Shown here: in pieces, positions 2,136-37,449 of the stretch
Layout: each line of letters starts with the position of its first letter
How positions within the stretch are numbered: the stretch's first letter is position 1
The notes under the pieces: generated by a model
Seen by the model: only the letters and a program-made list of their open reading frames with translations
What the model was told of the DNA's origin: nothing
Databases searched by the model: none
Translations under genes and position numbers: made by a program
Origin: an uncultured archaeon
GTDB taxonomy: Archaea; Iainarchaeota; Iainarchaeia; Iainarchaeales; GW2011-AR10
Reading direction: 5' to 3'
DNA: 38,785 nucleotides
Assembly (NCBI GenBank): GCA_964362395.1
Contig: CAYIER010000002.1
Coordinates: forward strand, 1-38,785

Positions 2136-2272
2136 CGCCCGCAAAATCAGGCGATGCCAACCGCAAAACCGGTTGACGCTGTTTGTCCCTTCTTTGACGG
2201 GACAGTCCCAGTGAAATTGGGACAAATTCGCCAACAGAATTTGCCGTTGCTTTTGTCCCGCCAAAGCGGAAC
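2136..2272. repeat. Mosaic hairpin element, copy A (six consecutive short hairpins between L24e and ndk)
   Basis: Hairpins: cgcccg-caaaat-caggcg, caaccg-caaaac-cggttg, gtcccttc-ttt-gacgggac, gtccca-gtgaaat-tgggac, aaattc-gccaaca-gaattt, gtcccgc-caaa-gcggaac. Collinear with copy J. Confidence 0.8.
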
Positions 2273-2288
2273 CACTTTGCACAAAATT

Positions 2289-2495
2289 TTATTTTGTCTT
2301 TTCACCTTTTTTCATTATTGCCTTGACCTTGTGGTGCGCTGCAGTCCACTTGACTTTCTGCGGAGACCTTTCAAGCTCAAGCAAATTTTTTTCGCACTTT
2401 CTGGAGCAGAAATAAAAAATCGTTCCGTCCTTTTTTGCAAAAATTTTTCCGGTTCCTCTTTCAATTCCTGACCCGCAAAACGAACAATTAACCAT
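2289..2495 (-). CDS. rpl24e: 50S ribosomal protein L24e
   Basis: CSFCGSGIERGTG...FCSRKCEKN zinc-ribbon signature, in the conserved L7Ae-S28e-L24e-ndk synteny. Confidence 0.9.
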   Translation of the reverse strand: MVNCSFCGSGIERGTGKIFAKKDGTIFYFCSRKCEKNLLELERSPQKVKWTAAHHKVKAIMKKGEKTK

Positions 2496-2513
2496 TGGTG
2501 CATCAACTCTTTT

Positions 2514-2720
2514 TCACTTTGCCTTGATTTCCTTTGCTTCGCGCTCCGTGCTCAACAAAACAATTATGTCGCCTTTCTTTACGGCTCCCTTGACGTTGCG
2601 CCTCTTTACCCTGCCCTCTTCTGGCCCCTCAAGTATCTTGCAAAGGACCTGGACAATTTCGCCGTAAACCCCTGTCCTTTGGATAATTTCAACCACTTCA
2701 GCCGGTGTTCCCTTGTCCAT
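2514..2720 (-). CDS. rps28e: 30S ribosomal protein S28e
   Basis: [19 protein letters not shown]...[23 protein letters not shown] pattern. Confidence 0.9.
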
Positions 2721-2734
2721 CTTTTTTCACCCAT

Positions 2735-3100
2735 TTAGTTTTTCAGGCCGCTCAATTTTTTTGCAAGGTCGTCAATGTCCTTTTTTGCGTCCCCCTCTGC
2801 GAGCACAGCAACCGAACTTGTCGAAACCCCAAGGCCGGCAAATTTTCCAAGCTCCTGCTTTGTTGAAACATAACTAAACGGGACGCCTTTTTCCCTGCAC
2901 AAAATAGGCAGGTGCATTACTATTTCTGGCGGGGAAACATCCTTTGCGATAAGAACAAGCTTTGCGTTCCCGCGCTCGATTGCCTTTGTGACCTCGTTTG
3001 AGCCGACCTTTAACTTGCCGGTCTTTTTTACCTTGTCAAGCACCCTCAACTGGGCTTCTTCGACTTCCTTTGGTACTTCAAACTTTACAAATTGCGCCAT
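2735..3100 (-). CDS. rpl7ae: 50S ribosomal protein L7Ae (K-turn binding protein)
   Basis: KVGSNEVTKAIERGNAKLVLIAKDVSPPEIV.HLP.LC.EKG.P motif. GGAGGT Shine-Dalgarno sequence upstream of the ATG. Confidence 0.95.
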   Translation of the reverse strand: MAQFVKFEVPKEVEEAQLRVLDKVKKTGKLKVGSNEVTKAIERGNAKLVLIAKDVSPPEIVMHLPILCREKGVPFSYVSTKQELGKFAGLGVSTSSVAVLAEGDAKKDIDDLAKKLSGLKN

Positions 3101-3134
3101 ATGCTTTTACCTCCAAAAAATTTTATCATCGGTA

Positions 3135-3210
3135 CGCCGGCAAATTCCGGCGACAAATTTGTCCCGTCTGCGACGGGACTTCCATGCACCAACAAATAAT
3201 ACTCATTGGC
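3135..3210. repeat. Mosaic hairpin element, copy B (upstream leader region of L7Ae)
   Basis: cgccgg-caaatt-ccggcg, then acaaattt, then gtcccgtc-tgc-gacgggac. A 26-nt block tttgtcccgtctgcgacgggacttcc is identical to copy E. Confidence 0.75.
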
Positions 3211-3350
3211 CTTTTAGCTTCAAAAACAAAATCGACTAAAAAATCGATTATTTCAAAAGGGGGCCAATATATATAAAATTCCCATCACAAGCCTTAAAAG
3301 GCTATTTTCGGGGTTTTAGACCAAAAAACCAGCTTTTGACTTAGATCTGC

Positions 3351-5021
3351 TTATTTATGTGCAAACACGCATTTTATCCTGTTTGGGGAGATTTCTTCCG
3401 CGCGCGCATAGCCGAATTTTTCAAAGTACAAAACATCGCCCTCGTTTAGGTCGCCATTGTACTGCGTTATGCCAAGCATTTTTTTGCCGTCATCCATCAG
3501 GATTTCCACGTCAACGCTCTCAATCACCCAGCGAAGAATCTTTTTCCTTTCCCCGCTGCCAGGCTCATGGGTGCCCGCAAATTTTCCGGACGCAAAAAAA
3601 CCGCTTTTTTCAAGCAAATTCACATTCAGCGCTTTTTTTAGCCGAAAAACCGAACCAATTTTTACAGAATTAATTTCACTTTTTTCAACAAAAAAACTCT
3701 GGCTCCCCGCGCTAATTCCTATCCCGTGCGCCTCCATTTTCGGCGTGAACTGCACCGACAACTCAACCGGTTCGGTCAATAGTTCCGCTGGCACCGCTTT
3801 TTCCAGCAGTTCACCGCGATTGAGGTTCGCAAGCCTTGCAAACTCTATCGACGAGTCGTTTGTTTTAATCCCCAAATCAAGCACTGCCTTCTTGAGTGCC
3901 TGCGGCACAAATCCCCTTCTGCGCAGCGCGCGGATTGTCCCAAGCCGCGGGTCATCCCAGCCCGAGTAAATTCCTTTTTCGATTCCTTCCTTTATTTTCG
4001 AGGTGCTCAAAACCATTTTGCCCAATTTAATGCGCCCGAAATGAATTGAGTGCGGGTATGCCCAGCCAAAATACTCGTACAAAAATTTTTGTTTTGTCAT
4101 GTTTTGTTCGTGTTCTTGCCCGCGGATAATCAGTGTTACACCAAGCTCGTGGTCATCAATCGCTGACGCAAAATTGTACGACGGCCAGACATGAACATCC
4201 TTAACTTTTGGGTTTGGGTGCTCGACCTTGTCCACGATTTTTGCAGCCCACCAGTCGCGCACGCTCGGGTCAGGGTGCGACAAATCGGTTTTTATCCGAA
4301 GTACGGCAGAGCCCTCTTTTAATTCGTGGATGATCATTTTGTTGAAGCGCTCCATCTGCGAGTCGGAATTTTTTTCCCTGCACGGGCACGCCTTTTTTTT
4401 ACCGATTAGCTTTCTCCACTTTTCTGGCTCGCACTCGCACACATACGCGTGGCCCATTGAAATGGTTTTTCTCATAAAATCATGGTAAATTGAAAGGCGG
4501 TCTGACGCAAAAAAAACCTCTGCCGGCGGGCATCCAAGCCAGTTCAGGTCTTCAATATAAATTTCTTTTGCGTTTGCAATCGGCTTTTTCACCTTGGGAT
4601 CGGTGTCGTCAAATCGCAGGAAAAACTTTCCCAAATATTTTTTTGCATACTCAAAGCTCAGGATTGCCGCACGCGCGTTCCCCAAATGGAACGGGCCATT
4701 TGGATTTGGCGCAAAACGCGTCACAACCATGTCCTTTTTTGCCCACTCAAAATCAGGGAGACCAATCGGTTTTTCGGGCGGCTTTAATTCATAAGAGCCC
4801 TCAAATTTTTCAAACTCTTTTTCTATCCCGCCAAAATCCATTGCATTGACTTTTTTGACTGCCAAAGAAATGACCGGCATAGCCGCCTTCAAATCCAGTG
4901 CCTTGTCAAGCGCCTTCATTTTGCCGACAACAGCGCCAACATCCGCATGCCCCTCGTGCAAATAAGCGTTCTTTATTGCGTAGCGATAAGCGTCGTTTTC
5001 CAAATCCAAGCAAAACACCAA
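3351..5021 (-). CDS. gltX: Glutamyl-tRNA synthetase (archaeal type)
   Basis: RFAPNPNGPFHLGNARAA (HIGH-type motif) in a class I Glx-RS core, with VLSTSK in the KMSKS position. Confidence 0.9.
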   Translation of the reverse strand: MVFCLDLENDAYRYAIKNAYLHEGHADVGAVVGKMKALDKALDLKAAMPVISLAVKKVNAMDFGGIEKEFEKFEGSYELKPPEKPIGLPDFEWAKKDMVVTRFAPNPNGPFHLGNARAAILSFEYAKKYLGKFFLRFDDTDPKVKKPIANAKEIYIEDLNWLGCPPAEVFFASDRLSIYHDFMRKTISMGHAYVCECEPEKWRKLIGKKKACPCREKNSDSQMERFNKMIIHELKEGSAVLRIKTDLSHPDPSVRDWWAAKIVDKVEHPNPKVKDVHVWPSYNFASAIDDHELGVTLIIRGQEHEQNMTKQKFLYEYFGWAYPHSIHFGRIKLGKMVLSTSKIKEGIEKGIYSGWDDPRLGTIRALRRRGFVPQALKKAVLDLGIKTNDSSIEFARLANLNRGELLEKAVPAELLTEPVELSVQFTPKMEAHGIGISAGSQSFFVEKSEINSVKIGSVFRLKKALNVNLLEKSGFFASGKFAGTHEPGSGERKKILRWVIESVDVEILMDDGKKMLGITQYNGDLNEGDVLYFEKFGYARAEEISPNRIKCVFAHK

Positions 5022-5118
5022 AAAATAAGTAATAGAAAAAGGCTTTAAAAGTGCAGGGAAAACATTTAAATATAATTTGTATTACAAAGTATTACGGGTG
5101 GTTTTTTTGGTTGCTGGC

Positions 5119-5394
5119 GTGATTACTTTGCGGCTTGAAGGCAAGGACAAGCAAAAGGTCTGGGATTTGGCAAAGAAAAAAAGGGAAACAAAGTCAAACC
5201 TCATGAGAAAAGCCCTGCTTTCTTACATTGAAAAAGAAACAGAATTGGACGAAATAAAAGAAATTGTTGCCGTAAAATTTGTGGAAGGAAAAATCTCTTT
5301 TGATGAACTAGTCAGAATACTTGGCTTTGATGAAGCAAAAAAAGTGGCCTTCTTTGCGGACATTGCCGAAAAGTCTTTCCAAGAAGGGATTTGA
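5119..5394 (+). CDS. Ribbon-helix-helix (CopG-like) putative antitoxin
   Basis: ITLRLEGKDKQKVWDLAKKKRETKSNLMRKALLSYIEKE fits a strand-helix-helix pattern. The stop abuts the next ATG (TGAATG). The GTG start at 5119 is inferred; the ORF track starts at 5077 with TTG. Confidence 0.5.
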   Translation: MITLRLEGKDKQKVWDLAKKKRETKSNLMRKALLSYIEKETELDEIKEIVAVKFVEGKISFDELVRILGFDEAKKVAFFADIAEKSFQEGI

Positions 5395-5922
5395 ATGAAA
5401 AAAGCCGTGGCAGACACTTCGGCCCTCATTTCAATTGCATTAAGCGGGAAGCTTCCTGAAGTCGTGGAAAATATCGGTTTATTTGCCCCAAAAGCGGTCA
5501 AGCTTGAAATTGCAGAAATGGCCGGATATGATGACATTGAAGGGGGCGCTGCAAAAAACATTTTAAATTTCATAAAAAACAAAAAAATCAGTTTAATAGA
5601 AATAAAAAACGAAAAAAATGCACGCGATTTGACCGGCAAAAGCATTGACCAAGGGGAAGCAGAATGCTTTGAGCTTGCAGCAGAAGAAAAAATCGGGACA
5701 ATCCTGATGGACGACGTGAATGCAGCATACCGCATAACCGGCCTTGCAAAACCCAAAAACATTTCAATAAAAATATCCACCGCAGCAATAGTTGAATTGA
5801 TTAAACAGGAAAAACTGGCAAAAAAACAAGGCATTTTTGCCCTACAAAAAATGGTCAAAAACAGGCAATGGGAAAAAGGAATACTGGAATTCCTGATAAA
5901 AAAATACGTAAAAGAAATTTAG
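5395..5922 (+). CDS. PIN-like nucleic-acid-binding protein (DUF3368-like), putative toxin partner
   Basis: N-terminal AVADTSALISIA, central DQGEAECFELAAEE and ILMDDVNA resemble the D...GE...DD pattern of the DUF3368 PIN-like family. Confidence 0.55.
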   Translation: MKKAVADTSALISIALSGKLPEVVENIGLFAPKAVKLEIAEMAGYDDIEGGAAKNILNFIKNKKISLIEIKNEKNARDLTGKSIDQGEAECFELAAEEKIGTILMDDVNAAYRITGLAKPKNISIKISTAAIVELIKQEKLAKKQGIFALQKMVKNRQWEKGILEFLIKKYVKEI

Positions 5923-6171
5923 GCAACTGACTTCAACAGTTAATTATTTATTTGATGCTTGACAGTCTATTTTTATAATGCCAATTCACAAAGGTCTGAG
6001 AGAAACAGAGGCTGGATTTTTAAATGAACGCAGGAAGATGGCTTTACAAAAATCTGTTAATAGACTGATAAAAGATTTTGAAACAGGAGTGCCCCCCCTG
6101 TAAGAGAAAAAATTCTTAAAAGTTATTTAAGGAACAAAACTAATGCTGATAGAAGATTTGTTTTTGAAGAA

Positions 6172-6411
6172 TTGGCAATCAGGAATTTGTTTCACAATAG
6201 GATTGTATCTCAAATAGATGAAACACTTGCACTTGCAAGAAGAGATAACCCTAAACTTGCAGGTGTTATTTATTTTGGGAGTTTTTCCAGAGGGAAAAAA
6301 TCCCCGCGAGACCTTGATTTGATTTTATTGTTTGGGGCAAACACAACAAAAACAGAGGTCAAACAAGGAATTGCCTCATTTCACGCCATAATAAAACAGG
6401 AATACAAATAG
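6172..6411 (+). CDS. Nucleotidyltransferase-domain protein (MNT-like); the frame appears split from an upstream 41-aa ORF at a C7 run
   Basis: GSFSRGKKSPRDLDLILLF matches the GS-x9-DxD NTase motif. The frame is open back to 6082. The ATG ORF 5978-6103 ends just after the C7 run at 6092-6098. Confidence 0.55.
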   Translation: MAIRNLFHNRIVSQIDETLALARRDNPKLAGVIYFGSFSRGKKSPRDLDLILLFGANTTKTEVKQGIASFHAIIKQEYK

Positions 6412-6490
6412 AGCCACACACTATTCAAACAGTTTCAACTTCGAAAAATAACTTAACGAGTAAATTGGTTAATCTTGCATTTGCAAGTGC

Positions 6491-6500
6491 TATTTATAAA
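6491..6500 (+). promoter_or_regulatory. TATA-like box about 30 nt upstream of 93-nt repeat copy 1
   Basis: TATTTATAAA. An archaeal TATA-to-TSS spacing would put the start near the first base of the repeat (6532). Confidence 0.3.
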
Positions 6501-6531
6501 TCGCCAAGACCGTTTTTCAGAAAGTGGCAGA

Positions 6532-6624
6532 TATAGCAAACTGCTTATATTTTTGAACATTTTATGGCAGTTTGCTATATGCAAAGAGCAATTAAAAGTT
6601 CAATTATTTATGCTCTTTGCTATA
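6532..6624 (+). repeat. 93-nt double-hairpin repeat, copy 1
   Basis: tatagcaaactgc-N24-gcagtttgctata, then tgcaaagagc-N-gctctttgctata. 92/93 identical to 31684-31776. Confidence 0.9.
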
Positions 6625-6795
6625 GTTACACAAGACCAGGCAGTCAGACATCTTTACGAAAAAATTTTAGAAGCAATTGAAAAATCTGGACGAAAAGCAA
6701 CACTAAAAAGAATGGACACACTGCATCGTGTAAATATTCAAAGATTCAGGGAACAAATTGAATACCTAAAAAGACAAATAATGCAATCTATTTAA
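6610..6795 (+). CDS. Small hypothetical helical protein (61 aa)
   Basis: Its ATG lies inside the second hairpin of repeat copy 1. The N-terminal part of ORF-track entry 6475-6795 is repeat sequence, read in a different frame at copy 2. Confidence 0.35.
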   Translation: MLFAIVTQDQAVRHLYEKILEAIEKSGRKATLKRMDTLHRVNIQRFREQIEYLKRQIMQSI

Positions 6796-6854
6796 ACTCA
6801 ATCGGTACTGTAGCCCAGATTTTGTGTCACCGCGGCAGTCAAAGTGAATTAGCC

Positions 6855-7616
6855 TTAAACTTTTTTCGCTGTTTCCCAGAGCTTGTCAAAGTAGTGCTGC
6901 AGCGCGCCTGCCATGTGGGTGTTTTCTGGCCAGATGATGAAGTGGTATTCTGGCTTTTCTTCAACAATGCTTGAGAGCGCAAGGATGACTTTTTTTTTGT
7001 CAACAATGTATGCCTCAAGACCGTGGCTTGCGTGCTTAAATTCAATTCCGGCGTTTTTTATTTCCTTCAAGAAAGTGCTGTCGCTTTCCAGTTGCCCGCT
7101 TATAACTTTTACTTTGACGTTTTTTTCGGAAATTTTTTTGACCGACTCGCTTATCAGGGAATAGTTTTTTGAGTGCTCGGTAAAAATAGTAAGCGAATTT
7201 TTTGCTGCCGCGATTTCCTGTGCAAGAATCCACAAAAAATCCATTTTGTCCTTTACCTTCATGACTTTTTCACTGCCTCCGTTTGACAACTCGTTTGGAA
7301 GCAATTTCTTGAAAGAAACAGCGCGCTCTTCTAGTTTTGAAAGCTCGGTTTTTCGCTCCGAAATAAGGCGGTCAAACACCTTTGCTGGTTCAACCACGCG
7401 GTACTTTTTTGGCCTTCCGTAAACCTCAATAATCAGTTCGCGCTTGGTGAGGCGGTCAAGTACGTCGTAAACCCTTGTTTTTGGCACCTGTGCGTTGCGG
7501 CTAATCTGGGGTGCTTCGGCGTCCTTTAACTCGAAAAGAGAATTAAGCGTTTTTGCCTCGTATTCGGTCAATCCAAGCTGCTCCAAAAAGGCCGTTATTG
7601 TCGTTTCTGTCATCAA
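6855..7616 (-). CDS. TrmB-family transcriptional regulator
   Basis: N-terminal wHTH LGLTEYEAKTLNSLFELKDAEAPQISRNAQVPKTRVYDVLDRL, followed by a coiled linker and a C-terminal effector-like domain. Confidence 0.85.
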   Translation of the reverse strand: MMTETTITAFLEQLGLTEYEAKTLNSLFELKDAEAPQISRNAQVPKTRVYDVLDRLTKRELIIEVYGRPKKYRVVEPAKVFDRLISERKTELSKLEERAVSFKKLLPNELSNGGSEKVMKVKDKMDFLWILAQEIAAAKNSLTIFTEHSKNYSLISESVKKISEKNVKVKVISGQLESDSTFLKEIKNAGIEFKHASHGLEAYIVDKKKVILALSSIVEEKPEYHFIIWPENTHMAGALQHYFDKLWETAKKV

Positions 7617-7695
7617 AAAAACCCTGTAAAGGCATATATATAATATAATCAGAACCTTATAAATTTACCTTTTCCAGTTAGGGAATGACCTTGGC

Positions 7696-9868: not shown

Positions 9869-9970
9869 GCCCCGTCTTCAGACGGGACACATCCGCGGTG
9901 TAACAAATTGGCAAAGAAAATATAATGATTATTCAACTGCCAATTTGTTAAAACGGACGCAAACGTTTTT
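9869..9970. repeat. Mosaic hairpin element, copy C (between tRNA-Leu and L18e)
   Basis: gccccgtc-ttca-gacgggac, then a long hairpin taacaaattggca-N24-tgccaatttgtta (13 bp perfect), then aaaacg-N8-cgtttt. Confidence 0.8.
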
Positions 9971-9984: not shown

Positions 9985-10090
9985 TGCAGGGGGGAGGATT
10001 CGAACCCCCGAAGGCACTGAGCCACAGGATCGCTCATCTTATTTTATTGCATCTTAAGTCCTGCCCATTAAACCGCTTTGGTACCCCTGC
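9985..10090 (-). tRNA. tRNA-Leu (anticodon UAA), class II, with a ~22-nt intron at the canonical 37/38 position; no encoded CCA
   Basis: Minus strand: acceptor GCAGGGG/CCCCTGC plus A73, 3-bp D stem, anticodon stem CAGGA/TCCTG with loop CTTAAGA interrupted by an insert, long variable arm GGC-TCAGT-GCC, T arm GGGGG-TTCGAAT-CCTCC. Confidence 0.8.
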
Positions 10091-17382: not shown

Positions 17383-17807
17383 TTTTTGGCCTCCATCACA
17401 GTGGATTCAAGGTGCTTTTTTCCCCGAAAATAACCACCCTTAACCATAAGGTATGCTTTCCTGTAAGGGATTTTCATCTTCTGTTTTCCCTGCTTTAATT
17501 CCTTAAGCTTTTTCCTCTGCGCCCGAACAGCCCTCATCCATTTTTCCTTTGGATTTGTCCGCGCCTTTGCAGTTCCCTTTCTTTTACCAAACCCTCTTTT
17601 GCTTCCCTTCTTTCTTAAAAGCGCCCTTTTCTTATTCTTGCCTGCAAGCCTTTTTTCTTTGACAATCCCTTCCTTAATCAATAACCGCAGATCCTCTTTT
17701 GTCATTGCCTCAGCCACCCTTTCATTTTCAAGCGGGCTGACCCAAATCCTGCTCTTGCCTGTTTTAAGCAATTGCCCCGCCATCCCTTTTGCTTTCTGCG
17801 CCTTCAT
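17379..17807 (-). CDS. rpl19e: 50S ribosomal protein L19e
   Basis: G.SRIWVSP......A.T.ED.R.LI.EG.....R motif. ATG at 17807 lies in the relic junction; the ORF track uses GTG at 17816. Confidence 0.9.
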   Translation of the reverse strand: MKAQKAKGMAGQLLKTGKSRIWVSPLENERVAEAMTKEDLRLLIKEGIVKEKRLAGKNKKRALLRKKGSKRGFGKRKGTAKARTNPKEKWMRAVRAQRKKLKELKQGKQKMKIPYRKAYLMVKGGYFRGKKHLESTVMEAKK

Positions 17808-17819
17808 CTTTTTCACCCG
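17803..17819. repeat. Direct repeat, proximal copy: relic of the L32e stop region overlapping the L19e start
   Basis: ttcatctttttcacccg here versus ttcatcttttccacctg at 17943-17959 (15/17), 140 nt apart, flanking hairpin element D. Confidence 0.7.
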
Positions 17820-17922
17820 CCTGCAAAATCACGCCAACAAATTGGCAATTGAACAAATTCTAGAATATTCTTTCGCCAATTTGTTGCGACACTTTCCTGC
17901 CATCCCGCTTCGCTCAATGGCA
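17818..17922. repeat. Mosaic hairpin element, copy D (between L32e and L19e)
   Basis: A degenerate caaaat-loop hairpin, then the long hairpin aacaaattggc-N28-gccaatttgtt, then gcgacactttcc, then tgccat-N-aatggca. Confidence 0.8.
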
Positions 17923-17942
17923 CTTCAAAAATCAAATTTTCA

Positions 17943-17959
17943 TTCATCTTTTCCACCTG
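17943..17959. repeat. Direct repeat, distal copy: the functional 3' end of L32e (..RWKR-TGA)
   Basis: See 17803-17819. Confidence 0.7.
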
Positions 17960-24633: not shown

Positions 24634-24750
24634 CAACCGCAAAATCGGCACCAAATTGACAGTTGAACAATTCTGGATATTTTCTTTTGCCAATTCGGTG
24701 TGACACTTTTGTCCCGTCTGCGACGGGACTTCCGGCAAATAATTCATTGC
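24634..24750. repeat. Mosaic hairpin element, copy E (between L2 and S19)
   Basis: A truncated caaaat-loop hairpin, then the long hairpin caccaaattgaca-N26-tgccaattcggtg, then gtgacactttt, then gtcccgtc-tgc-gacgggac. About 85% identical to copy F over ~95 nt. Confidence 0.85.
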
Positions 24751-25966: not shown

Positions 25967-25973
25967 ACATTTA

Positions 25974-26005
25974 CCACTTGCCCTCTAAAGCCTTTATCGC
26001 GTCCT
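25974..26005. repeat. Direct repeat, proximal copy: relic of the L4 3' end (DAIKALEGKW-TAA) 4 nt upstream of the L23 ATG
   Basis: ccacttgccctctaaagcctttatcgcgtcct here versus 26087-26118 ccattttccctctaaagcctttatcgcgtcct (30/32), 113 nt apart. Confidence 0.85.
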
Positions 26006-26086
26006 TACCGCCTGCAAAATCAGGCGACACTTTTTCCCCATTCTTCGAATGGGGATTCTGCGCACAAATAAAAAACATCTCCATCA
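26006..26086. repeat. Mosaic hairpin element, copy H (between L4 and L23)
   Basis: cgcctg-caaaat-caggcg (26009-26026), then acacttttt, then ccccatt-cttcg-aatgggg (26036-26054). Bracketed by the 32-nt direct repeat. Confidence 0.85.
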
Positions 26087-26890
26087 CCATTTTCCCTCTA
26101 AAGCCTTTATCGCGTCCTCGCTCCACAAAGTGAGCCTTCCCGGGACAGCGCCCGGCGCAAGGAGCTTTGCATTGACGTTTTTCACATTCACAACCTCTAC
26201 ACCCTCAATGTTTCGCGCCGCCTTAAAAATCTTCGCCGAATCACTCACAACAATCAAAACACTCTTTGCCTTCTTGTACCGCCTTCCCCTCTTCTTTCCC
26301 TTTCCAGCCCTTCTCTTCCGCGCAGCCTTTGCCCTATCAACATCCAAAATCAACGAAAGCCTCTCAAGCGCCAAAACCACATTTTTTGTCCTGTCAAGCG
26401 CCTCGATTTTTTTCTCAACAATAACTGGAAAAACAAGTTTGTCCGAAATTTTGTGCCCCCTCTTTCGCACCAGTTCCGCAACCGCTGTCGCCGCAATCGC
26501 GCTTCTTGTCGCCTTCTGCTTTTCCTTGCGGTTAATCTTTTCCTTAAGGATTTTTTCAACCTTTGGCGGATGTGCCGCCGGGCCACCAACCGCCCAAGGA
26601 ACAAGCGCTACTTTTCCCGAAGAAATATATCTCCTGTTCCGCATCCTTGGCAGCCGTGCCTTTTCAATGTTGATTGTCCTGTGCATCTGCGGCTTTCGCC
26701 TTGCACCAATATAGCGCGCAGTGTAATTCCTTCCCGCGCTCTTCTTTGTTCCCTTTGGCTGCATTGCCGCGCTCTCAATTGACAACACGGCCCGCTTTAT
26801 CAGGTTTCCATCAATCGGCTCGCTGAAAACACCCGGCAGTTCAATTTCCCGGACTTTCTGCCCCTCAATGCTCAACACGCTTGCTTTCAT
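26084..26890 (-). CDS. rpl4: 50S ribosomal protein L4
   Basis: Typical archaeal L4 (...GRNYTARYIGARR..Q......GGPAAHPPK...) located between L3 and L23. Confidence 0.95.
   Translation of the reverse strand: MKASVLSIEGQKVREIELPGVFSEPIDGNLIKRAVLSIESAAMQPKGTKKSAGRNYTARYIGARRKPQMHRTINIEKARLPRMRNRRYISSGKVALVPWAVGGPAAHPPKVEKILKEKINRKEKQKATRSAIAATAVAELVRKRGHKISDKLVFPVIVEKKIEALDRTKNVVLALERLSLILDVDRAKAARKRRAGKGKKRGRRYKKAKSVLIVVSDSAKIFKAARNIEGVEVVNVKNVNAKLLAPGAVPGRLTLWSEDAIKALEGKW
26087..26118. repeat. Direct repeat, distal copy: the functional 3' end of L4 (..EDAIKALEGKW-TGA)
   Basis: See 25974-26005. Confidence 0.85.
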
Positions 26891-26907: not shown

Positions 26908-26928
26908 ATTTTTTCCCGCCACCCATTG
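26908..26928. repeat. Direct repeat, proximal copy: relic of the L3 3' end (MGGGKK-TAA) 15 nt upstream of the L4 ATG
   Basis: attttttcccgccacccattg here versus 27018-27038 attttttcccgccgcccattg (20/21), 110 nt apart. Confidence 0.85.
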
Positions 26929-27017
26929 CGGCCGCGTGCAAAATCACGCGACACTTTTGTGCCATTTCGCTTTGCTCAATGGCAATGTCATTGCTCGCCA
27001 ATAATTTGTGACTGTTC
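26929..27017. repeat. Mosaic hairpin element, copy G (between L3 and L4)
   Basis: cgcgtg-caaaat-cacgcg (26933-26950), then acacttttg, then tgccatt-tcgctttgctc-aatggca (26960-26984). Bracketed by the 21-nt direct repeat. Confidence 0.85.
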
Positions 27018-28167
27018 ATTTTTTCCCGCCGCCCATTGTAGCTTCCTTTATTTCATCCGCAACGCTTTTCTTTTCAACCTTTGCCTCTTTCTTTACAACA
27101 ATCCGCTGTGCCCGGACTTCGTCTCCTGCAACCGCTTCCTTCTCCTTCCTCTTTACCCCAAGAACAGAAAGCTCCGCGACATTAAACAAACCCTTGTAAC
27201 CAACCCTGATCGGGTCCCTTAAAGCAACAGCCCTCTTTACCGGCCCAGGCGTGCTTCCGCCAAGCAAAATAAACTGGTTCTTTATCACACCATAGCCTTC
27301 AAAACCGTGCGGCACATTTATTTCCGCAGGATTATTTGAAATCCTCAAAAGCCTCTTGTTGAGTTCCGTCCTGGACTGATACCCCATCTGGCCAGGCCTT
27401 GCAACAAACCTCATAACCGTTGAAGGATTCCACGGCCCAATACTTCCAACAACCCTTCTCTTCTTTGCCTTTCGCCTGTGCATCTTTACACCAAACCTTT
27501 TGATGACACCGGTAAAGCCCTTTCCGGCATCCACTGCCTTCACGTCAACAAACTGTTTTTCCTCAAACACCTCGTTGACTGAAAGATCCTTGCCAAGCTT
27601 TTCCTTTGCAAACTTCCACTGGTCGGCAACGCTTCCGCCAACAAAAACCTCAAACACATCCGCCACCTTTTTCCCAAAACCAAGCAAACCCGGCCTAGTG
27701 CTGCACAAAAGCTTTACTTTAACGATTTTGTCAACCTGCTTTTCCAAATCAGAAACCGTAGCATAACTTTTTTCGCCCCCTTCTTTCCCGCCCTTTTTCT
27801 TATTGCTCTTTCTCTTAAAATCAGGGTGGCGCTTCCTGAAAAACTTGTCAGGCTTCTCAACAGTCGCTTCGCCCAAAACACGCAGCGCGCCCTGCTCTTT
27901 CGTATAAGCCCTAATGCCAAAAACAGACAGCGGAGGGCACTCAATAACCGTCAAAGGAATCACGACCTGTTGCCCAAAACTCGTGGCCTTCTCCTGCTTA
28001 TTAACCGCAACCGCATGAACCATCCCAGCCTTATAGCCGACAAAATTCAACGGCTTTGCTTTCTGCCTGGAAAGCACATTGTCTGACCTAAAAGTAGCCA
28101 GTTCCCTTGCAGCCCTCTTTCTTGGGTAAAATGCCAGTGAGCCAGACCTTGGCTTGTGCCGAGTCAT
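27016..28167 (-). CDS. rpl3: 50S ribosomal protein L3
   Basis: PR.GSLAFYPRKRA, F.GYKAGM.H and GKGF.GV.KR.G....RRK motifs. First gene of the L3-L4-L23-L2 cluster. Confidence 0.95.
   Translation of the reverse strand: MTRHKPRSGSLAFYPRKRAARELATFRSDNVLSRQKAKPLNFVGYKAGMVHAVAVNKQEKATSFGQQVVIPLTVIECPPLSVFGIRAYTKEQGALRVLGEATVEKPDKFFRKRHPDFKRKSNKKKGGKEGGEKSYATVSDLEKQVDKIVKVKLLCSTRPGLLGFGKKVADVFEVFVGGSVADQWKFAKEKLGKDLSVNEVFEEKQFVDVKAVDAGKGFTGVIKRFGVKMHRRKAKKRRVVGSIGPWNPSTVMRFVARPGQMGYQSRTELNKRLLRISNNPAEINVPHGFEGYGVIKNQFILLGGSTPGPVKRAVALRDPIRVGYKGLFNVAELSVLGVKRKEKEAVAGDEVRAQRIVVKKEAKVEKKSVADEIKEATMGGGKK
27018..27038. repeat. Direct repeat, distal copy: the functional 3' end of L3 (..ATMGGGKK-TGA)
   Basis: See 26908-26928. 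Confidence 0.85.
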
Positions 28168-28324
28168 TTACATACCACTTTCAAAAACCACTGAAAATGC
28201 ACACAGGCCGGCAAAACGCCAGCAAAAAAGGGGGGAACCTTTCAAAATGCTAAAAAAAGCCAAAAAACAGCTATTTTTTTTGCATTTATATCCTTAGAAG
28301 ATTTACTAAGGATACAGTGTGCTT

Positions 28325-28393
28325 CGCCGACAAAATTCGGCGGTGCTTTCCTGCCATTTCGCTTCGCTCAATGGCAATGCGCCTTGTAGGCGC
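28325..28393. repeat. Mosaic hairpin element, copy I (upstream of the L3 operon)
   Basis: cgccga-caaaat-tcggcg, then gtgctttcc, then tgccatt-tcgcttcgctc-aatggca, then gcgcct-tgt-aggcgc. Confidence 0.8.
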
Positions 28394-31447: not shown

Positions 31448-31542
31448 TGTATACAAATTGCGGCACACCAAGTATTTAAATGTTACTTTTTAACGAGAAT
31501 TAGTGAATTGTATGTAAATTGTATGTAAAATCCGGCTGCTTC

Positions 31543-31635
31543 AACCGCAAAATCGGCACCAAATTGACAGTTGAATAATTATGACTAATTTCTTTTGCCA
31601 ATTTGGTGTGGCGCTTTCACCTGCTAAAGCGGGAC
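31543..31635. repeat. Mosaic hairpin element, copy F (upstream of the surface protein gene)
   Basis: aaccgcaaaatcgg, then the long hairpin caccaaattgaca-N26-tgccaatttggtg, then a degenerate terminal hairpin. Close paralog of copy E. Confidence 0.85.
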
Positions 31636-31646
31636 TGCTAAAGGAG

Positions 31647-31658: not shown

Positions 31659-31683
31659 CGCCCAAAATGGCTGCGTGTGCATC

Positions 31684-31776
31684 TATAGCAAACTGCTTAT
31701 ATTTTTGAACATTTTATGGCAGTTTGCCATATGCAAAGAGCAATTAAAAGTTCAATTATTTATGCTCTTTGCTATA
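31684..31776 (+). repeat. 93-nt double-hairpin repeat, copy 2
   Basis: 92/93 identical to 6532-6624. The single difference is at 31728. Confidence 0.9.
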
Positions 31777-31816
31777 ATTTGCGGAGCCAATTTGTGGCAG
31801 CATTTTTTCAGTCATG

Positions 31817-32339: not shown

Positions 32340-32344
32340 ATCTT

Positions 32345-33799: not shown

Positions 33800-33949
33800 T
33801 TTGCTTTTTCACCTCCCCTTGCACCGGAAACCCGGTGTGTCTCTTTAAATGGATTTTTAACCCACTTTCAACAAAAACTATCTGTGCAAACAATTAAAAC
33901 CATTAATCCCAATTTGGCTTCTTTGCATGGCTACCTTTGTGCAGATAGC

Positions 33950-34042
33950 TATAGCAAACTGCATTTGTTTTTGAACTATTGAGACAGTTTGCTATATGCA
34001 AAAAGCAATTAATTTGTTCAATTATCTATGCTCTTTGCTATA
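33950..34042 (+). repeat. 93-nt double-hairpin repeat, copy 3 (diverged, ~80% identical, same length)
   Basis: Shares the termini tatagcaaactg...ctctttgctata and both stems. Differences are concentrated in the loops. Confidence 0.8.
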
Positions 34043-34208
34043 TATAATTTCACACAAAAGGGCTCAAAACGCAAATTTTACAGACTGGCATTCAAATCAA
34101 TTGTTTCAAAAAAACGTTTCAACGGCGAAGGCAACCATTATTTTGAGCTATCAATCAATTCAATACCAGATATTGCCAAAATCGTAAATTTACCAAGATT
34201 ATTTTGAA

Positions 34209-34415
34209 ATGCCTATTGGGCAGGAAAAAACAATCAGTGAAAATTATGGCGGCATCTCCACAGTTGAACTCAAAAAAGGCATTCTTCAAAGCCGCTATGG
34301 CCTTGGAACAATTATTTTAACCAAAGGGGAAAACGCAATCTGGGTGATGAATATAGAGCGGTCGGACGAGGCATTCCTGAAAGTGAAGGAACTTGTTGAA
34401 AAAGCAAAGCACTAA
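34209..34415 (+). CDS. Small bacterial-PH-like (bPH/YdbS-type) domain protein
   Basis: ...RYGLGTIILTKGENAIWVMNIERSDEAFLKVKELV resembles the C-terminal strands and helix of bPH domains. Confidence 0.4.
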   Translation: MPIGQEKTISENYGGISTVELKKGILQSRYGLGTIILTKGENAIWVMNIERSDEAFLKVKELVEKAKH

Positions 34416-34503
34416 TTATGTTCAACAATTTCTTTCAATTTGGCTGCAAGCCTGTTAATATTTAATTCACTGAAAAAATCGAGATTTTCTGATTTGTCGT
34501 CCT

Positions 34504-34851
34504 TTAATCGCAAGGTAATCCTGCCAATAACCAACGGATGTGAGCCCGCAAAATTGTTTTTTTTAAAGATCTTATTTCATTAAATGGGATCTTGATTTTT
34601 TTCAGGAAAAAAATTTTTGAAATTTCAATCCGTGAACCGTTAATTGAATACCTTGAATAGCTCAAAACAACCCAGAGGACAATAAAAATGAACAACACGC
34701 CAAGCAGGGTTAAATTTTCCAGCAAAAAATCATATTTGGCCAAATAAAGCCCAACGCCATAAAATGCGGCATACAAAATTAAAATTACCGCAAAAAACGT
34801 GGTTTGCAATTTGTCCCACGAATAAACAACAAACTTTTCCATTTTGCTCAC
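34504..34851 (-). CDS. Membrane-anchored bPH-like protein; the reading frame appears broken at an A8 run and continues in another frame to 34412
   Basis: Two TM helices, then ...KIKIPFNEIRSLKK. After the homopolymer at 34557-34564 the alternative frame reads NNFAGSHPLVIGRITLRLKDDKSENLDFFSELNINRLAAKLKEIVEHN-stop. Confidence 0.5.
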   Translation of the reverse strand: MSKMEKFVVYSWDKLQTTFFAVILILYAAFYGVGLYLAKYDFLLENLTLLGVLFIFIVLWVVLSYSRYSINGSRIEISKIFFLKKIKIPFNEIRSLKKTILRAHIRWLLAGLPCD

Positions 34852-35023
34852 AGCCTGCCGTCAAATGCAGATTATAGCAAACCAAAAAAATAATTCCAAA
34901 AATTTTCATGGTTCCTTGCAAAATGCATGCATTTTGCGATGCCTCGCAGAGTTTCACTCTGCAAGGTGCTATCTATCAAACCACAAAATAAATGTAAAAT
35001 TTTATGTGGTTTGATATAATGCC

Positions 35024-35410
35024 TTAAAAATCAACCAGTTGTAGGTTGTCAATTTTTCCAAAATGCTTTTTATTCAAGGTAAAAAGCTTCTCGTTTTTTG
35101 CCAGGCAAATCCCTGCAATTGTTTCGTCATATTTTCCTATGGGGGTCCCTTTCTTCTTTTGCATTGCTTTTACTTGTACAACGTTGCTTAATTCCATTGA
35201 AGTGTAATCATAGATTTTAAATTTTTGCAGCATGAGTTTGCCTTTGTTGATAGAATCTTCCGTTGAAAAATATAGTCCGACTAAAAATTCTTCCGCATTC
35301 AAAATCGTGGTTGCAAGAGAATCAAATGTTTCAAGCCACTTGATTTTTTCAATTATTTTTTCATTGCCTTTGGAGAATGCAATTAAAACATCGGTGTCTA
35401 TGACAACCAT
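35024..35410 (-). CDS. vapC: PIN-domain toxin VapC
   Basis: VVIDTDVLI start, then conserved acidic positions (..NAEEF.., ..YDETIA..) and LFTLNKKHF. Overlaps the upstream antitoxin gene. Confidence 0.85.
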   Translation of the reverse strand: MVVIDTDVLIAFSKGNEKIIEKIKWLETFDSLATTILNAEEFLVGLYFSTEDSINKGKLMLQKFKIYDYTSMELSNVVQVKAMQKKKGTPIGKYDETIAGICLAKNEKLFTLNKKHFGKIDNLQLVDF

Positions 35411-35646
35411 AATTTATCAAGCCTTTTATCCCTTAATTTGTCAAGTTTATCTGTTTTTTTCCTGTAGCCTGTAATTGCATTTTCAACTTTTTTTGCTTCC
35501 CTTTCGGATAAAAAGCCTGCAAATTCCAAAATGCTTGTTTTCTCCTTGTCCGCAAGCCGCTCAAACAGGTCAGAAAAACTTTCTTCAGTTTTTTTTACTT
35601 TAACCAATTTATTATAAACTGTGTCTTTTATAGTCAGTGTTTTCAT
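35398..35646 (-). CDS. vapB: VapB-type antitoxin (archaeal UPF0330/COG1753-like)
   Basis: MKTLTIKDTVYNKLVKVKKTEESFSDLFERL pattern. 13-nt overlap with vapC. Confidence 0.75.
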   Translation of the reverse strand: MKTLTIKDTVYNKLVKVKKTEESFSDLFERLADKEKTSILEFAGFLSEREAKKVENAITGYRKKTDKLDKLRDKRLDKLWLS

Positions 35647-35744
35647 ATTTTTTCACAAAAACATCTGCCCATAAATGTATTTAAACATAATGTTTAAACA
35701 TTTCTCATTTTTTATAGTAATGCATGATTATTTGGCATATTGCC

Positions 35745-35875
35745 GCACCATAGAAGATGGTGCACGTATGCGTTGTAAACCAACCGCGAAATCGGTTGAC
35801 GCTTTAGTGTCCTCTTCGAGGACAGTCCCGCTGCAAGCGGGACAAATTCGTCGCCAGAATTTGCTGGCGGGCGCA
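35745..35875. repeat. Mosaic hairpin element, copy J (between archease and vapB); collinear with copy A
   Basis: Hairpins: gcaccat-agaag-atggtgc, caaccg-cgaaat-cggttg, gtcctc-ttc-gaggac, gtcccgc-tgcaa-gcgggac, aaattc-gtcgcca-gaattt (alternative fold cgccag-aatttg-ctggcg). Confidence 0.8.
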
Positions 35876-35884
35876 AAAGTTTTT

Positions 35885-36310
35885 TTAAACATCAATCACA
35901 ACAGTTGCCTTAAATTTTCCTTTCAGTTTTTCAATTTTAAACAAATGCTTTGTGGCCGCCTTGACATCGCTTCGAAGTCGCTTGTCAGGATACTTTATAT
36001 GCTCTCCAAAACATTTTGCACTTAACCCAAACTCTTTTTCTTTTTTTATTTTTGTTTCAAAGCGCGAAAACACAATTTCCTGCACGTCTTTCACAAAAAC
36101 AAGCTCTGACAGCCAGCCAAAAAGCAGTTCTTCAAGCGTTGCGGCAGATAGCCGGATTTCCACCTTGGTTTTTGGCCCGATTTTTTTTGTGTCAGCCATT
36201 ATCTCAAAAAGTGCTTCCGCGGCGTTCTCAAACAGCTCTTCCACTGTTTTCCCGTAAGCCTCAAATGCCGACTCAGCAATTGCCGTGTCCTCCAAAAATA
36301 GGTACTTCAT
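35885..36310 (-). CDS. Archease (RtcB activator)
   Basis: YLFLEDTAIAESAFEAYGKTVEELFENAAEALF start and VKAATKHLFKIE....KATVVIDV C-terminus. Confidence 0.9.
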   Translation of the reverse strand: MKYLFLEDTAIAESAFEAYGKTVEELFENAAEALFEIMADTKKIGPKTKVEIRLSAATLEELLFGWLSELVFVKDVQEIVFSRFETKIKKEKEFGLSAKCFGEHIKYPDKRLRSDVKAATKHLFKIEKLKGKFKATVVIDV

Positions 36311-36371
36311 CCAAAAACAAGTTTGGTCAAAAAGTATTTAAACAAGTAAAAACATTAATTTATAGACTTTT

Positions 36372-36815
36372 ATGTTAAGCAAACCGTTGCAGGCGGCAAT
36401 GATTTTTGGAATAGTAATCGTCTCTTTTGCAGCCCTATTGGGGCAGGCGGGGAACTTTTTTTCAAAAGCACAGGGAGCACAAAAAATCACTGGAACAATT
36501 GTTTTGGTTGATGATTTTAAATTTGTGACTGATGGTGGAGCGAAATTTGGTCAAACTTTTGTCAAAAGCACTGTTGCACTGCCGGGCACTTCCTGTAGTG
36601 TAATGGTTGCCGGCTGTTGTGCCAATTTCGGGGGAGGAGCATCATTTAATACAAGTCTATACATAGGCTCCAACAATTTTCCAGGGACTCTAGGCCAACT
36701 GTGCAACTCAGGAAATGCAACCCTTGCTGGCAGTTCAACTTATGAAGTAGGCATGAATTGTGCTTCCATAGATGCAATCAGCAATTTGTCGGTTTCCTAT
36801 TCATGCACCATATAA
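36372..36815 (+). CDS. Small secreted/anchored Cys-rich protein with a pilin-like (class III-type) N-terminus
   Basis: MLSKPLQAAMIFGIVIVSFAALL hydrophobic N-terminus. The Gly/Ser/Asn-rich C-terminal part has 7 Cys. Confidence 0.45.
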   Translation: MLSKPLQAAMIFGIVIVSFAALLGQAGNFFSKAQGAQKITGTIVLVDDFKFVTDGGAKFGQTFVKSTVALPGTSCSVMVAGCCANFGGGASFNTSLYIGSNNFPGTLGQLCNSGNATLAGSSTYEVGMNCASIDAISNLSVSYSCTI

Positions 36816-36831
36816 AAAAAACGATGCCTAA

Positions 36832-37029
36832 AAAATTTTCAAAGAATACCCTTTCACCGTTTTTGTAAAAAATGGCGAAGCCAATCTCCCAAAAGACAGC
36901 ATGGTTTTGCTGAACCAAATAAGGACAATTTCAATCAACGACAGGGCAGTGCAAAAAATTGGTTCAGTAAATTTTCAAACAATGGAAAAAGTTGATGGGG
37001 TAATCAAAATAAGCCTTGCATTAAAATGA
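36832..37029 (+). pseudogene. MazF/PemK-family toxin remnant (C-terminal ~65 aa, no start codon)
   Basis: Own translation: KIFKEYPFTVFVKNGEANLPKDSMVLLNQIRTISINDRAVQKIGSVNFQTMEKVDGVIKISLALK-stop. Resembles the C-terminal ..S.v..dQiRtid..R....iG pattern. A stop lies immediately upstream at 36829. Confidence 0.55.
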
Positions 37030-37033
37030 ATTG

Positions 37034-37342
37034 TCATTCTCGCAGTTCCATTTCCACATGAACGTTTTCCGGCACGTCAACGCGAAGAATCCGCCTTAGC
37101 GTTCGCTCGTCGCTTTCAATGTCAATCAGCCTTTTATGTATCCGCATCTGCCACTTTTCGTAGGATTCGGTTCCGCCGCCGCAGGGGGCTTTGCGTGTGG
37201 GGATAATGAGTTTTTTTGTGGGCAAGGGTATTTTTCCAGAGTGCTTTACGCCTGTTTTTTTTGCAACGTCAATTATTTGGTCGCAGATTTCCTCCAGCCG
37301 ATTGTAATCGGTGCTGGTCAGTTTTATCCTTGCCTTTTGCAT
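37034..37342 (-). CDS. rps10: 30S ribosomal protein S10
   Basis: MQKARIKLTSTDYNRLEEIC......A...G....G.IPLPTK motif. The ORF-track TTG start at 37372 runs into hairpin element K. Confidence 0.95.
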   Translation of the reverse strand: MQKARIKLTSTDYNRLEEICDQIIDVAKKTGVKHSGKIPLPTKKLIIPTRKAPCGGGTESYEKWQMRIHKRLIDIESDERTLRRILRVDVPENVHVEMELRE

Positions 37343-37366
37343 TTCCCAAAACCCTTGCGTGAGTTT

Positions 37367-37449
37367 TAACAAATTGGCAAAAGAAATCCCATAAATTATT
37401 CACTTGCCAATTTGTTACGCCGCATATATGCCCCGCCTGAAGGCGAGAC
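37367..37449. repeat. Mosaic hairpin element, copy K (between EF-1alpha and S10)
   Basis: Long hairpin taacaaattggcaa-N23-ttgccaatttgtta (14 bp perfect), then gccccgcc-tgaa-ggcgagac. Confidence 0.8.

Follow-up and report, generated by a model that had tools for sequence, protein, structure and literature searches.

We found that the imperfect pairs of hairpin repeats in the ribosomal operons of a groundwater archaeon (Diapherotrites/Iainarchaeota, DPANN) are mostly G-U on the gene strand. This strand bias is real and goes beyond base composition, but it is weaker than the 12:1 ratio given in a preliminary description of the DNA. The stretch analyzed (the window) comprises 38,785 nt of the forward strand of contig CAYIER010000002.1 (GCA_964362395.1; Iainarchaeota GW2011-AR10). 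The minus strand carries nearly all genes of the window, including the ribosomal-protein operons. Our preferred explanation, held with moderate confidence, is that the hairpins are REP/BIME-like repeats co-transcribed with the operons, in which G·U is tolerated and A·C is removed.

Hairpins in the window spacers were enumerated blindly and strand-symmetrically (≥5 Watson-Crick pairs, ≥4 G-C, and a loop of 3-12). The plus strand contained 18 A·C oppositions versus 5.4±2.6 in the shuffled spacers (0/300 dinucleotide shuffles reached 18), and 7 G·T oppositions versus 4.0±2.1 in 300 dinucleotide shuffles (P = 0.12). The excess over the shuffles was about 12.6 for A·C versus 3 for G·T, and the difference between the two classes was significant against dinucleotide shuffles (P = 0.003). 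The background is not 1:1, as spacer composition alone gives an expected A·C:G·T ratio of 1.33. Independent replication came from relatives (L148-L152), with 16 sense G·U (vs. 6.0±2.5) and 9 A·C (vs. 6.1). The gene-strand G·U excess was seen in four related genomes, and also in the leader hairpins of relatives without the repeat unit.

Such a pattern might arise without selection on folding, from strand-asymmetric mutation (deamination of non-template C and A in transcription) together with a G+T-rich gene strand. The gene strand of the spacers has more G than C and more T than A, even shuffled spacers fold more stably as minus RNA, and the changes inferred from the comparison of repeat copies (the E, D, and X modules described below) mix sense C>U and A>G. 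However, composition caps the bias at about 1.15-1.33-fold, far from the excess of 12.6 A·C to 3 G·T; polarised strain polymorphisms comprised 5 G·U-type and 7 A·C-type transitions (a small sample, mostly coding); and the residual energy asymmetry described below is absent in element-free spacers. A mutation bias looks too small to be the cause, and we regard this explanation as improbable.

The window contains about 30 hairpins of the family in 4.4 kb of spacer, forming 11 arrays. In the repeat unit, a variable hairpin (X) is followed by a CAAAAGUGU linker and then by a hairpin of 6 bp whose loop is AUUUUG (B). Longer hairpin types (the E and D modules) accompany the unit, and the E module consists of 13-bp inverted arms flanking an A+T-rich center of 24-26 nt. 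Alignment of the copies showed that the loop and linker are conserved and the stems variable. The B stem is 99% paired, with 6/6 pairs covarying (17 copies from 5 genomes or metagenomes). The CAAAAGUGU linker is complementary to the AUUUUG loop, and this complementarity is conserved; it has no obvious role in the sense RNA. Pairing of linker and loop into an H-type sense-strand pseudoknot was rejected on steric grounds, as reasoned from the alignment, since loop 3 would be only 0-1 nt.

The final module ahead of the NDK start codon is a minus-strand B hairpin at 2136-2153 (sense CGCCUG-AUUUUG-CGGGCG, U·G 2140/2149; minus RNA -10.4 vs. plus RNA -5.6 kcal/mol), whose 3' arm overlaps sequence already present in the array-free relative L153. 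It is followed by a second minus-strand B hairpin (2156-2177; CAACCG-GUUUUG-CGGUUG; 35.9 bits), lengthened by a G-C pair that encloses a U·G (2157/2176), and by two adjoining X hairpins (2184-2223; TGTCCC..GGGACA and GTCCCA..TGGGAC) with a possible plus-strand G·T at 2211/2217. Next lie a plus-oriented B hairpin (2232-2249; CAACAG-AATTTG-CCGTTG; 36.4 bits on the plus strand), whose own-strand A·C at 2236/2245 is a G·U in the minus RNA, and a minus-strand X hairpin (2255-2272; GTCCCGC-caaa-GCGGAAC; plus-strand C·A 2257/2270; -11.8 vs. -6.3 kcal/mol). Downstream of the archease gene, a palindromic composite (35781-35869) homologous to 2156-2249 consists of a minus-strand B (35781-35798), two X hairpins (35806-35843), and a plus-strand B (35852-35869). 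The unit upstream of L7Ae (3135-3179, minus strand; 40.7 bits) is perfect, with X at 3161-3179, the palindromic linker GACAAATTTGTC, and B at 3135-3152.

The tRNA-to-L18e spacer (9869-9950) contains an X hairpin (9869-9888; plus-strand C·A 9870/9887) and an E hairpin (9901-9950) with its loop in the opposite orientation to that of the 24649 copy. In the EF1A-to-S10 spacer (37367-37450), an E hairpin with a reversed loop and a perfect stem (37367-37417) is accompanied by an X hairpin (37429-37450) with two plus-strand C·A oppositions (37431/37448 and 37433/37446; -13.7 vs. -6.0 kcal/mol).

The remaining arrays are on the minus strand. That at the L32e/L19e junction (17803-17957) comprises a degenerate B (17818-17835), an E (17835-17886; A·C 17847/17874), and a D (17898-17922; C·A 17904/17916), with 15-nt direct duplications on either side (17803-17817 and 17943-17957); in the relative L148, the L32e and L19e genes overlap. 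The L2/S19 array (24634-24729) has a degenerate B (24634-24651), an E (24649-24700; A·C 24653/24696 and 24659/24690), and an X (24711-24729). The L4/L23 array (25973-26118; 45.5 bits), with B at 26009-26026 and X at 26035-26055, is bordered by a 33-nt duplication of the L4 end (25973-26005 and 26086-26118), and the L3/L4 array (26908-27038; 43.8 bits), with B at 26933-26950 (enclosed U·G 26932/26951) and D at 26960-26984, by a 21-nt duplication (26908-26928 and 27018-27038). The L3 leader modules (28207-28393) are a B-like hairpin (28207-28223; C·A 28209/28221), B (28325-28342), D (28352-28376), and X (28379-28393); a conserved leader hairpin (28289-28314) also lies within this leader. Another copy (31542-31636) has a degenerate B (31542-31559), an E (31557-31608; inherited A·C 31567/31598), and a degenerate X (31617-31636; plus-strand T·G 31622/31631). 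Because it is placed between two apparently divergent promoters, this copy is probably not transcribed. It is the copy that carries the plus-strand G·T, and we count its decay in this form for the preferred explanation.

The preliminary description had listed 12 plus-strand C-A or A-C oppositions and a single G-T within otherwise perfect stems. The bases were as described at all 13 coordinate pairs, and each pair is inside a hairpin of the repeated family or at its end. However, two of them (17847/17874 and 17904/17916) are loop-side terminal oppositions rather than interior ones. In addition, the oppositions 24659/24690 and 31567/31598 go back to a single change, inherited by two copies (89% identical) of one element, so about 10-11 C·A events are independent. 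The G-T is not the only one: others of equal quality exist, for example at 2211/2217 (loop-side), and terminal T·G oppositions at 28324/28343 and 35851/35870 had been missed, as had the enclosed C·A oppositions at the base of B hairpins (2157/2176 and 26932/26951). The curated mismatch count is small, with P of about 0.008 to 0.04 depending on the treatment of non-independent and omitted cases. The direction of the bias between C·A and G·T was confirmed by the blind enumeration, but its magnitude was not.

When both strands were folded with RNAfold, as had been proposed, the minus-strand RNA was the more stable one in all spacers with elements. Base composition, however, accounts for most of this raw energy gap, and shuffles reproduced the greater part of it. 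The residual z-scores combined to about -4.4 over the 11 element spacers versus -1.1 over 7 element-free spacers. Among single hairpins, the minus RNA was 1.8-7.7 kcal/mol more stable than the plus RNA; the sole hairpin favoring the plus RNA was the degenerate X at 31617-31636 (+4.1 kcal/mol). With DNA energy parameters, the asymmetry had the same direction (0.1-3.2 kcal/mol). G·T is the least destabilizing mismatch in DNA too; the bias therefore tells which strand is constrained but not whether as RNA or as DNA. The earlier proposal that the hairpins are maintained as RNA on the strand of the ribosomal operons is right about the strand (the operons are on the minus strand, the wobble excess exceeds composition, and the relatives agree), but it was supported only in part, as the DNA parameters give an asymmetry in the same direction.

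The arrays are lineage-specific insertions at gene junctions. They are absent from close relatives, occupy differing junctions in different genomes, and sit directly ahead of downstream translation-start regions. Several are accompanied by target duplications of 9, 15, 15, 21-23, and 33-35 nt. A scan of genome contigs with GCAAAATCNNNCGACACTTT gave 88 stretches, nearly all chance matches, and the relative L071; among the matches of a metagenome scan, only L118, L119, and L133 were true loci. Three scans of viral contigs, made to look for a virus or plasmid origin, gave chance matches only. No new units were found in the overlapping sequence L001, which extends 5.7 kb beyond the window, or in an additional, partly masked spacer (L154). 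In the related metagenomic organism represented by L119 and L133, the repeat unit is antisense to both flanking genes; gene-sense orientation is therefore not obligatory.

These observations bear on the possibility that the same strand is constrained as single-stranded DNA, through a strand-specific process such as mobilisation via a single-stranded intermediate or extrusion from the lagging-strand template. The hairpins would then be substrates or by-products, with G·T tolerated and A·C not. The direction of the DNA-parameter asymmetry, the insertion of the arrays at differing junctions, and the antisense units are consistent with such a process, and a conserved loop and linker with variable stems is as expected for protein recognition. 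Since nearly all genes are on one strand, gene direction and possible replication direction are inseparable in the window. However, the gain from G·T in DNA is small compared with that in RNA, and neither the surroundings of the arrays in the 38.8-kb window nor the ORFs of L071 and L119 yielded a transposase, integrase, or reverse transcriptase. Transposition of the IS200/IS605 and RAYT types proceeds without target duplication, yet duplications of 9-35 nt are present, and the G·U excess in leader hairpins of unit-free relatives also argues against this process. We consider it rather unlikely.

The bias had also been said to hold although the elements occur in both orientations. This rests on only one to three mismatches: 2236/2245 in the plus-oriented B unit bears it out, and at most 9870/9887, 37431/37448, and 37433/37446, beside reversed E hairpins, can be added. 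In a CM search of the window, 9 of the 11 units with E≤0.011 were minus-oriented, the presumed direction of transcription. Part of the bias is a property of the element, since the unit consensus itself has a U·G at the B-stem base in sense orientation. If the whole bias were intrinsic, the master copies would already have had G·U in sense, and most copies would merely happen to share an orientation. The recurrence of the B-stem-base U·G at one position across several copies and genomes, the single inherited change at 24659/24690 and 31567/31598, and the predominance of minus-oriented units agree with this. However, most of the cited mismatches are private to a single copy and Watson-Crick at those positions in sister copies, and the mismatch of the plus-oriented B at 2232-2249 reads as G·U on the minus strand rather than on the strand of the unit. 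An entirely intrinsic origin is highly improbable.

Several other identities were considered. With the Rfam 15 covariance models, at gathering and permissive thresholds, only a tRNA (9985-10090) reached threshold, and the arrays gave no sub-threshold matches. H/ACA or C/D sRNAs were rejected: the hairpins have no pocket, no boxes, and no Rfam match. Bacterial-type intrinsic terminators were rejected as well, as the number of sites was near chance (31 vs. 27.3 and 36 vs. 26.8), and the hairpins on the minus strand are not followed by U runs. The only terminator-like B hairpins are those at 26009 and 26933, both on the plus strand. Plus-strand terminators of antisense transcription, which the arrangement of a hairpin with ACACUUUU could suggest, are disfavored by the wobble side.

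The elements most resemble bacterial REP/BIME sequences in form. Like these, they are G+C-rich, imperfect extragenic palindromes of 20-40 nt with short stems (6-9 bp in REP/BIME), present in many copies in the window, with sub-families of alternative complementary stems, in mosaic clusters with inverted pairs between co-directional genes, and with G·T in stems. G·T pairing in stems has already been used to argue for an RNA function of bacterial REPs (Di Nocera et al. 2013, PMC3733652). The GTAG/CGTC-tagged REP superfamilies have an unpaired tetranucleotide at one hairpin end (PMC3733652). No unpaired GTAG or CGTC tag was found at the archaeal hairpin ends: the B hairpins are flanked by GUGU 5' and G/GG 3', and CGTC occurs only within X stems. 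No RAYT (Y1 transposase) gene was found in the 38.8-kb window or the L071/L119 ORFs. Also unlike REP/BIME, the host is archaeal (DPANN), the unit is two hairpins joined by a linker complementary to the loop, the modules lie immediately upstream of start codons in ribosomal-protein operons, and the arrays are flanked by target duplications.

Co-transcribed MITEs that fold in mRNA (Correia/NEMIS, ERIC, RUP; archaeal MITEs and PATEs) are likewise small, hairpin-forming, non-autonomous spacer insertions, present or absent among relatives, and the E module has inverted arms. However, in the window these arms occur only in E modules, the duplications are variable rather than of fixed short length, and no parent IS element was found; the modules recombine in varying order, and the stems covary while loop and linker are conserved. 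IS200/IS605 elements and PATEs fit poorly, as target duplications are present, and neither the window nor L071/L119 yielded a TnpA/TnpB. The archaeal family and its long duplications appear to be undescribed. G·U asymmetry is a strand indicator in comparative RNA gene finders such as RNAz, as a G·U reads A·C on the other strand; unlike there, we compared paralogous copies of one genome, not orthologous alignments.

In the preferred explanation, the modules belong to a mosaic REP/BIME-like family of Iainarchaeota and were inserted, mostly in gene orientation, in spacers and at places where genes used to overlap. As parts of the polycistronic minus-strand mRNAs and their leaders, they would be transcribed with the genes and form hairpins in the RNA. 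Each transition within a stem would yield either G·U, which keeps the helix and may persist, or A·C, which would open the RNA helix and be removed or compensated. G·U survivors in the minus RNA are read as C·A on the plus DNA strand. By analogy with the proposals for bacterial REP/BIME, the hairpins would most likely protect the ends of mRNA segments or insulate neighboring cistrons. Counted against this explanation are the agreement of DNA parameters, the compositional energy gap, the small curated count, the antisense units of L119 and L133, and the linker-loop complementarity.

A broader reading is possible, although on balance doubtful: that this is an undescribed modular repeat of Iainarchaeota (X, CAAAAGUGU linker, and B with an AUUUUG loop covarying with the linker) that spreads to operon junctions without a classical transposase, leaves 9-35-nt duplications through which both the stop codon upstream and the ribosome-binding site downstream are retained, and is kept as an RNA-level inter-cistron insulator in ribosomal-protein operons. 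It might spread by template switching where there is Shine-Dalgarno microhomology, or through an RNA intermediate. Such long, variable target duplications are unexplained by any standard transposition mechanism. A genome-reduced DPANN archaeon tolerates hairpin arrays of about 80-170 nt in tightly packed, normally overlapping ribosomal-protein genes. If transcribed and functional, these would be the first REP/BIME-like post-transcriptional elements described for this archaeal lineage, and would offer a way into operon-junction remodelling. The strand bias, whose principle was already known, is a cheap, sequence-only sign of single-strand action in gene orientation.

In a set of strains 98.5-99.96% identical, the sole in-stem change in two aligned spacers was that of strain L006, a C>U in the B hairpin at 2156-2177 by which the outermost C-G of the six-pair stem becomes a sense U·G; we count it for the preferred explanation.

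The window has a G+C content of 44%, with a C- and T-rich plus strand, and encodes archaeal S10/spc/alpha ribosomal-protein clusters, SecY, RpoD/N, EF1A, RtcB and others; nearly all of its genes lie on the minus strand. Contigs 98.5-99.96% identical to it came from the 0.1 µm fraction of Hainich groundwater well H51, and homologues of S3 and NDK carry the label Candidatus Diapherotrites (= Iainarchaeota, DPANN group). Three-digit handles below (L001 to L153) denote compared contigs or genomes, not ribosomal proteins.

The most frequent unit of the repeat family, read on the minus (gene) strand, consists of a variable X hairpin (6-9-bp stem, often GUCCC...GGGAC), a linker, (C)AAAAGUGU or CAAAUUYGU, and a B hairpin, whose stem has 6 bp and whose loop is AUUUUG, AAUUUG, GUUUUG or ACUUUG. 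There are also three copies of a D module (UGCCAUU..AAUGGCA) and five of an E module, in which 13-bp arms (CAACAAAUUGGCA) enclose an A+T-rich centre of 24-26 nt, reversed in two of the five. When 17 B copies from the window, L071, L118/L133, L148 and L151 were aligned, the B stem was 99% paired, all six pairs covaried, and ten distinct stems were perfectly complementary. The linker (CAAAN) and the B loop (N'UUUG) are complementary to each other (alignment columns 5-10 with 20-25), as at window 26951-26930 on the minus strand, and one linker/loop position covaries (A-U in 9 copies, U-A in 5, G-U in 2 and G-C in 1, unpaired in 0). A linker-loop pseudoknot on the sense strand was ruled out because the two helices cannot coexist.

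A covariance model found the unit only in the window (at E≤0.011, nine minus-strand and two plus-strand units) and in L071, L118/L133, L148 and L151; it did not find the unit in L149, L150 or L152, and no Rfam family matched the hairpins. In JGI metagenome Ga0209211 (L118 1590-1830, L119 5850-6090 and L133 1940-2190), the unit lies within a longer repeat of ~200 nt. In L118 and L119, two extra hairpins are inserted between AUU and UUG in the loop of a B-type stem (CAACCG/CGGUUG); therefore, the modules appear to be nested in one another. Between copies, a C-G pair of one inner stem has changed to U-A, a compensatory change.

Comparison of gene junctions indicates that the hairpin arrays have been inserted. 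Relatives whose NDK is 88%, 74% and 69% identical lack the 171-nt array that separates L24e from NDK in the window, and their gene calls leave a spacer of 6-18 nt (in the relative L153, the L24e homologue may stop about 20 nt earlier). L32e and L19e overlap in the related genome L148 and are 127 nt apart in the window; conversely, the S17/L14 junction contains a unit in L148, and these genes overlap in the window. At junctions where the genes had originally abutted or overlapped, direct duplications of the junction sequence flank the insert: 15 nt at L32e/L19e (array 17803-17957), 21-23 nt at L3/L4 (26908-27038), 33-35 nt at L4/L23 (25973-26118), 9 nt at S17/L14 of L148 (about 3883-3965) and 15 nt in contig L071 (about 3095-3190). 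The upstream copy runs as far as the stop codon of the preceding gene, and the downstream one includes the next gene's start and ribosome-binding site. Each 9-35-nt duplication preserves both. In every case the B hairpin is the end of the insert. The length and variability of these duplications exceed what ordinary IS or MITE insertion leaves, and no transposase, integrase or reverse transcriptase was found in the window or beside the L071 and L119 units. The element family itself, with its long, variable target duplications, is a more unusual finding than the strand bias of its stem mismatches.

That bias is real and moderately significant. All 13 mismatches in the preliminary description (12 plus-strand C·A or A·C oppositions, which read as G·U in minus-strand RNA, and one G·T, 31622/31631) have the bases described, and each lies within a hairpin of the family. 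The direction of the 12:1 ratio holds, but the ratio is too high: two of the C·A pairs are loop-side terminal, two represent a single inherited change, and plus-strand G·T pairs of similar quality at 2211/2217 and, in terminal position, at 28324/28343 and 35851/35870 had not been counted, nor had enclosed C·A pairs at the B-stem base (2157/2176 and 26932/26951). When both strands were folded as RNA, the minus strand was more stable by 1.8-7.7 kcal/mol in the ten affected hairpins; perfect copies differed by 0 to 0.8 kcal/mol, and only the degenerate copy 31617-31636 favoured the plus strand.

Since spacer composition alone predicts an A·C:G·T ratio of 1.33, the null ratio is not 1:1. We thus enumerated all G+C-rich hairpins by one rule for both strands and every mismatch type, and compared the counts with 300 dinucleotide-preserving shuffles. 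The window spacers contained 18 A·C (5.4±2.6 in shuffles, none of which reached 18) and 7 G·T (4.0±2.1), and the difference between the two was significant (P=0.003). Inside genes, the outcome varied with the threshold: a minimum of 6 pairs gave 59 A·C against 41.6 expected, and a minimum of 5 gave an excess that was not significant. RNAfold of whole spacers favoured minus RNA everywhere, and shuffles account for most of this advantage (spacer 2118-2288: -19.4 observed, -9.7 expected). By our own arithmetic, the residual z-scores combine to about -4.4 for the 11 element-bearing spacers and about -1.1 for the seven element-free spacers. The same enumeration of co-directional spacers in four related genomes (L148-L152), where the gene strand is plus, gave 16 gene-strand G·U (6.0±2.5; 0 of 300 shuffles reached 16) and 9 A·C (6.1 expected); the difference gave P=0.03, or 0.007 at ≥6 pairs, with several hairpins overlapping within one L3 leader and thus not fully independent.

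We favour the reading that a folded gene-strand transcript would be under selection that tolerates G·U and not A·C. Mutation bias alone looks too weak to produce the wobble excess: for spacers close to mutational equilibrium, the rate-ratio product would equal (fT·fG)/(fC·fA), 1.33 on the gene strand, and polarised strain polymorphisms comprise 5 G·U-type and 7 A·C-type transitions, a small sample. The unit itself contributes some of the bias, through a conserved U·G at the B-stem base. For bias arising in place, the strongest case is B unit 2232-2249, which is plus-oriented and has a mismatch that forms G·U on the minus strand; the decay pattern of copy 31542-31636, probably untranscribed, also argues for this. 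Constraint on single-stranded DNA of the gene strand, instead of RNA, is not distinguished by the bias, as DNA parameters give an asymmetry of the same sign and smaller magnitude, and gene direction and possible replication direction are confounded within the window. The proposal that RNA structures are maintained on the ribosomal-protein-operon strand is probably correct as to the strand and plausibly correct as to a putatively transcribed RNA. In L119 and L133, from a related metagenomic organism, the unit is antisense to both neighbouring genes; therefore, gene-sense orientation is a tendency, not a rule.

In their mode of working, the elements resemble bacterial REP/BIME repeats and co-transcribed MITEs. 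Di Nocera et al. (2013, PMC3733652) observed that G·T pairs are frequent in the stems of REPs and interpreted this as evidence for their action as RNA; the G·U-side logic for RNA is thus already known. The window elements lack the REP tag GTAG or CGTC and a fixed short target duplication of the MITE type; on these defining features they belong to neither class. No REP-associated RAYT was seen in the window or in L071 and L119. A full-text search of literature on DPANN or Diapherotrites gave nothing specific on comparable elements.

Other features were observed in the window. An apparently intron-containing tRNA (9985-10090, minus strand; 106-nt Rfam match, 45 bits) went undetected by ARAGORN in bacterial mode, which fits the presence of an archaeal intron. 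A B unit of L071, as we read the sequence, stops one base short of the 5' end of an apparent tRNA gene. Upstream of L3, a leader motif (28289-28314, minus strand) comprises ACUGUAUC, a stem-loop, GGAUAUAAAUGC and then an A run; it is conserved at L149 5726-5754 and L150 5409-5437, the stem differing fully in sequence across the three genomes with complementarity kept, and might serve as a regulatory leader for the S10-type operon. A separate ~100-nt repeat occurs at 6527-6627, 31679-31779 and 33945-34045 (the latter two 96% and 63% identical to the first), in which a TATA-like TTATATTTTTG lies between inverted TATAGCAAACTGC/GCAGTTTGCTATA arms; it overlaps plus-strand ORF starts. The GHVDHGK P-loop of the aIF5B gene (1-192, 190-996) is interrupted by an intein that has a LAGLIDADG motif; the window ORF terminates within the intein, and strain contig L001 encodes the full 1195-aa protein. 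Bases 1-192 do not match L001, probably reflecting an assembly join at the window end. Several toxin-antitoxin-like pairs are scattered amid the translation genes at 5077-5922, 6172-6795 and 35024-35646 (DUF6290 with a PIN-like ORF, a nucleotidyltransferase with a HEPN-like ORF, and VapBC).
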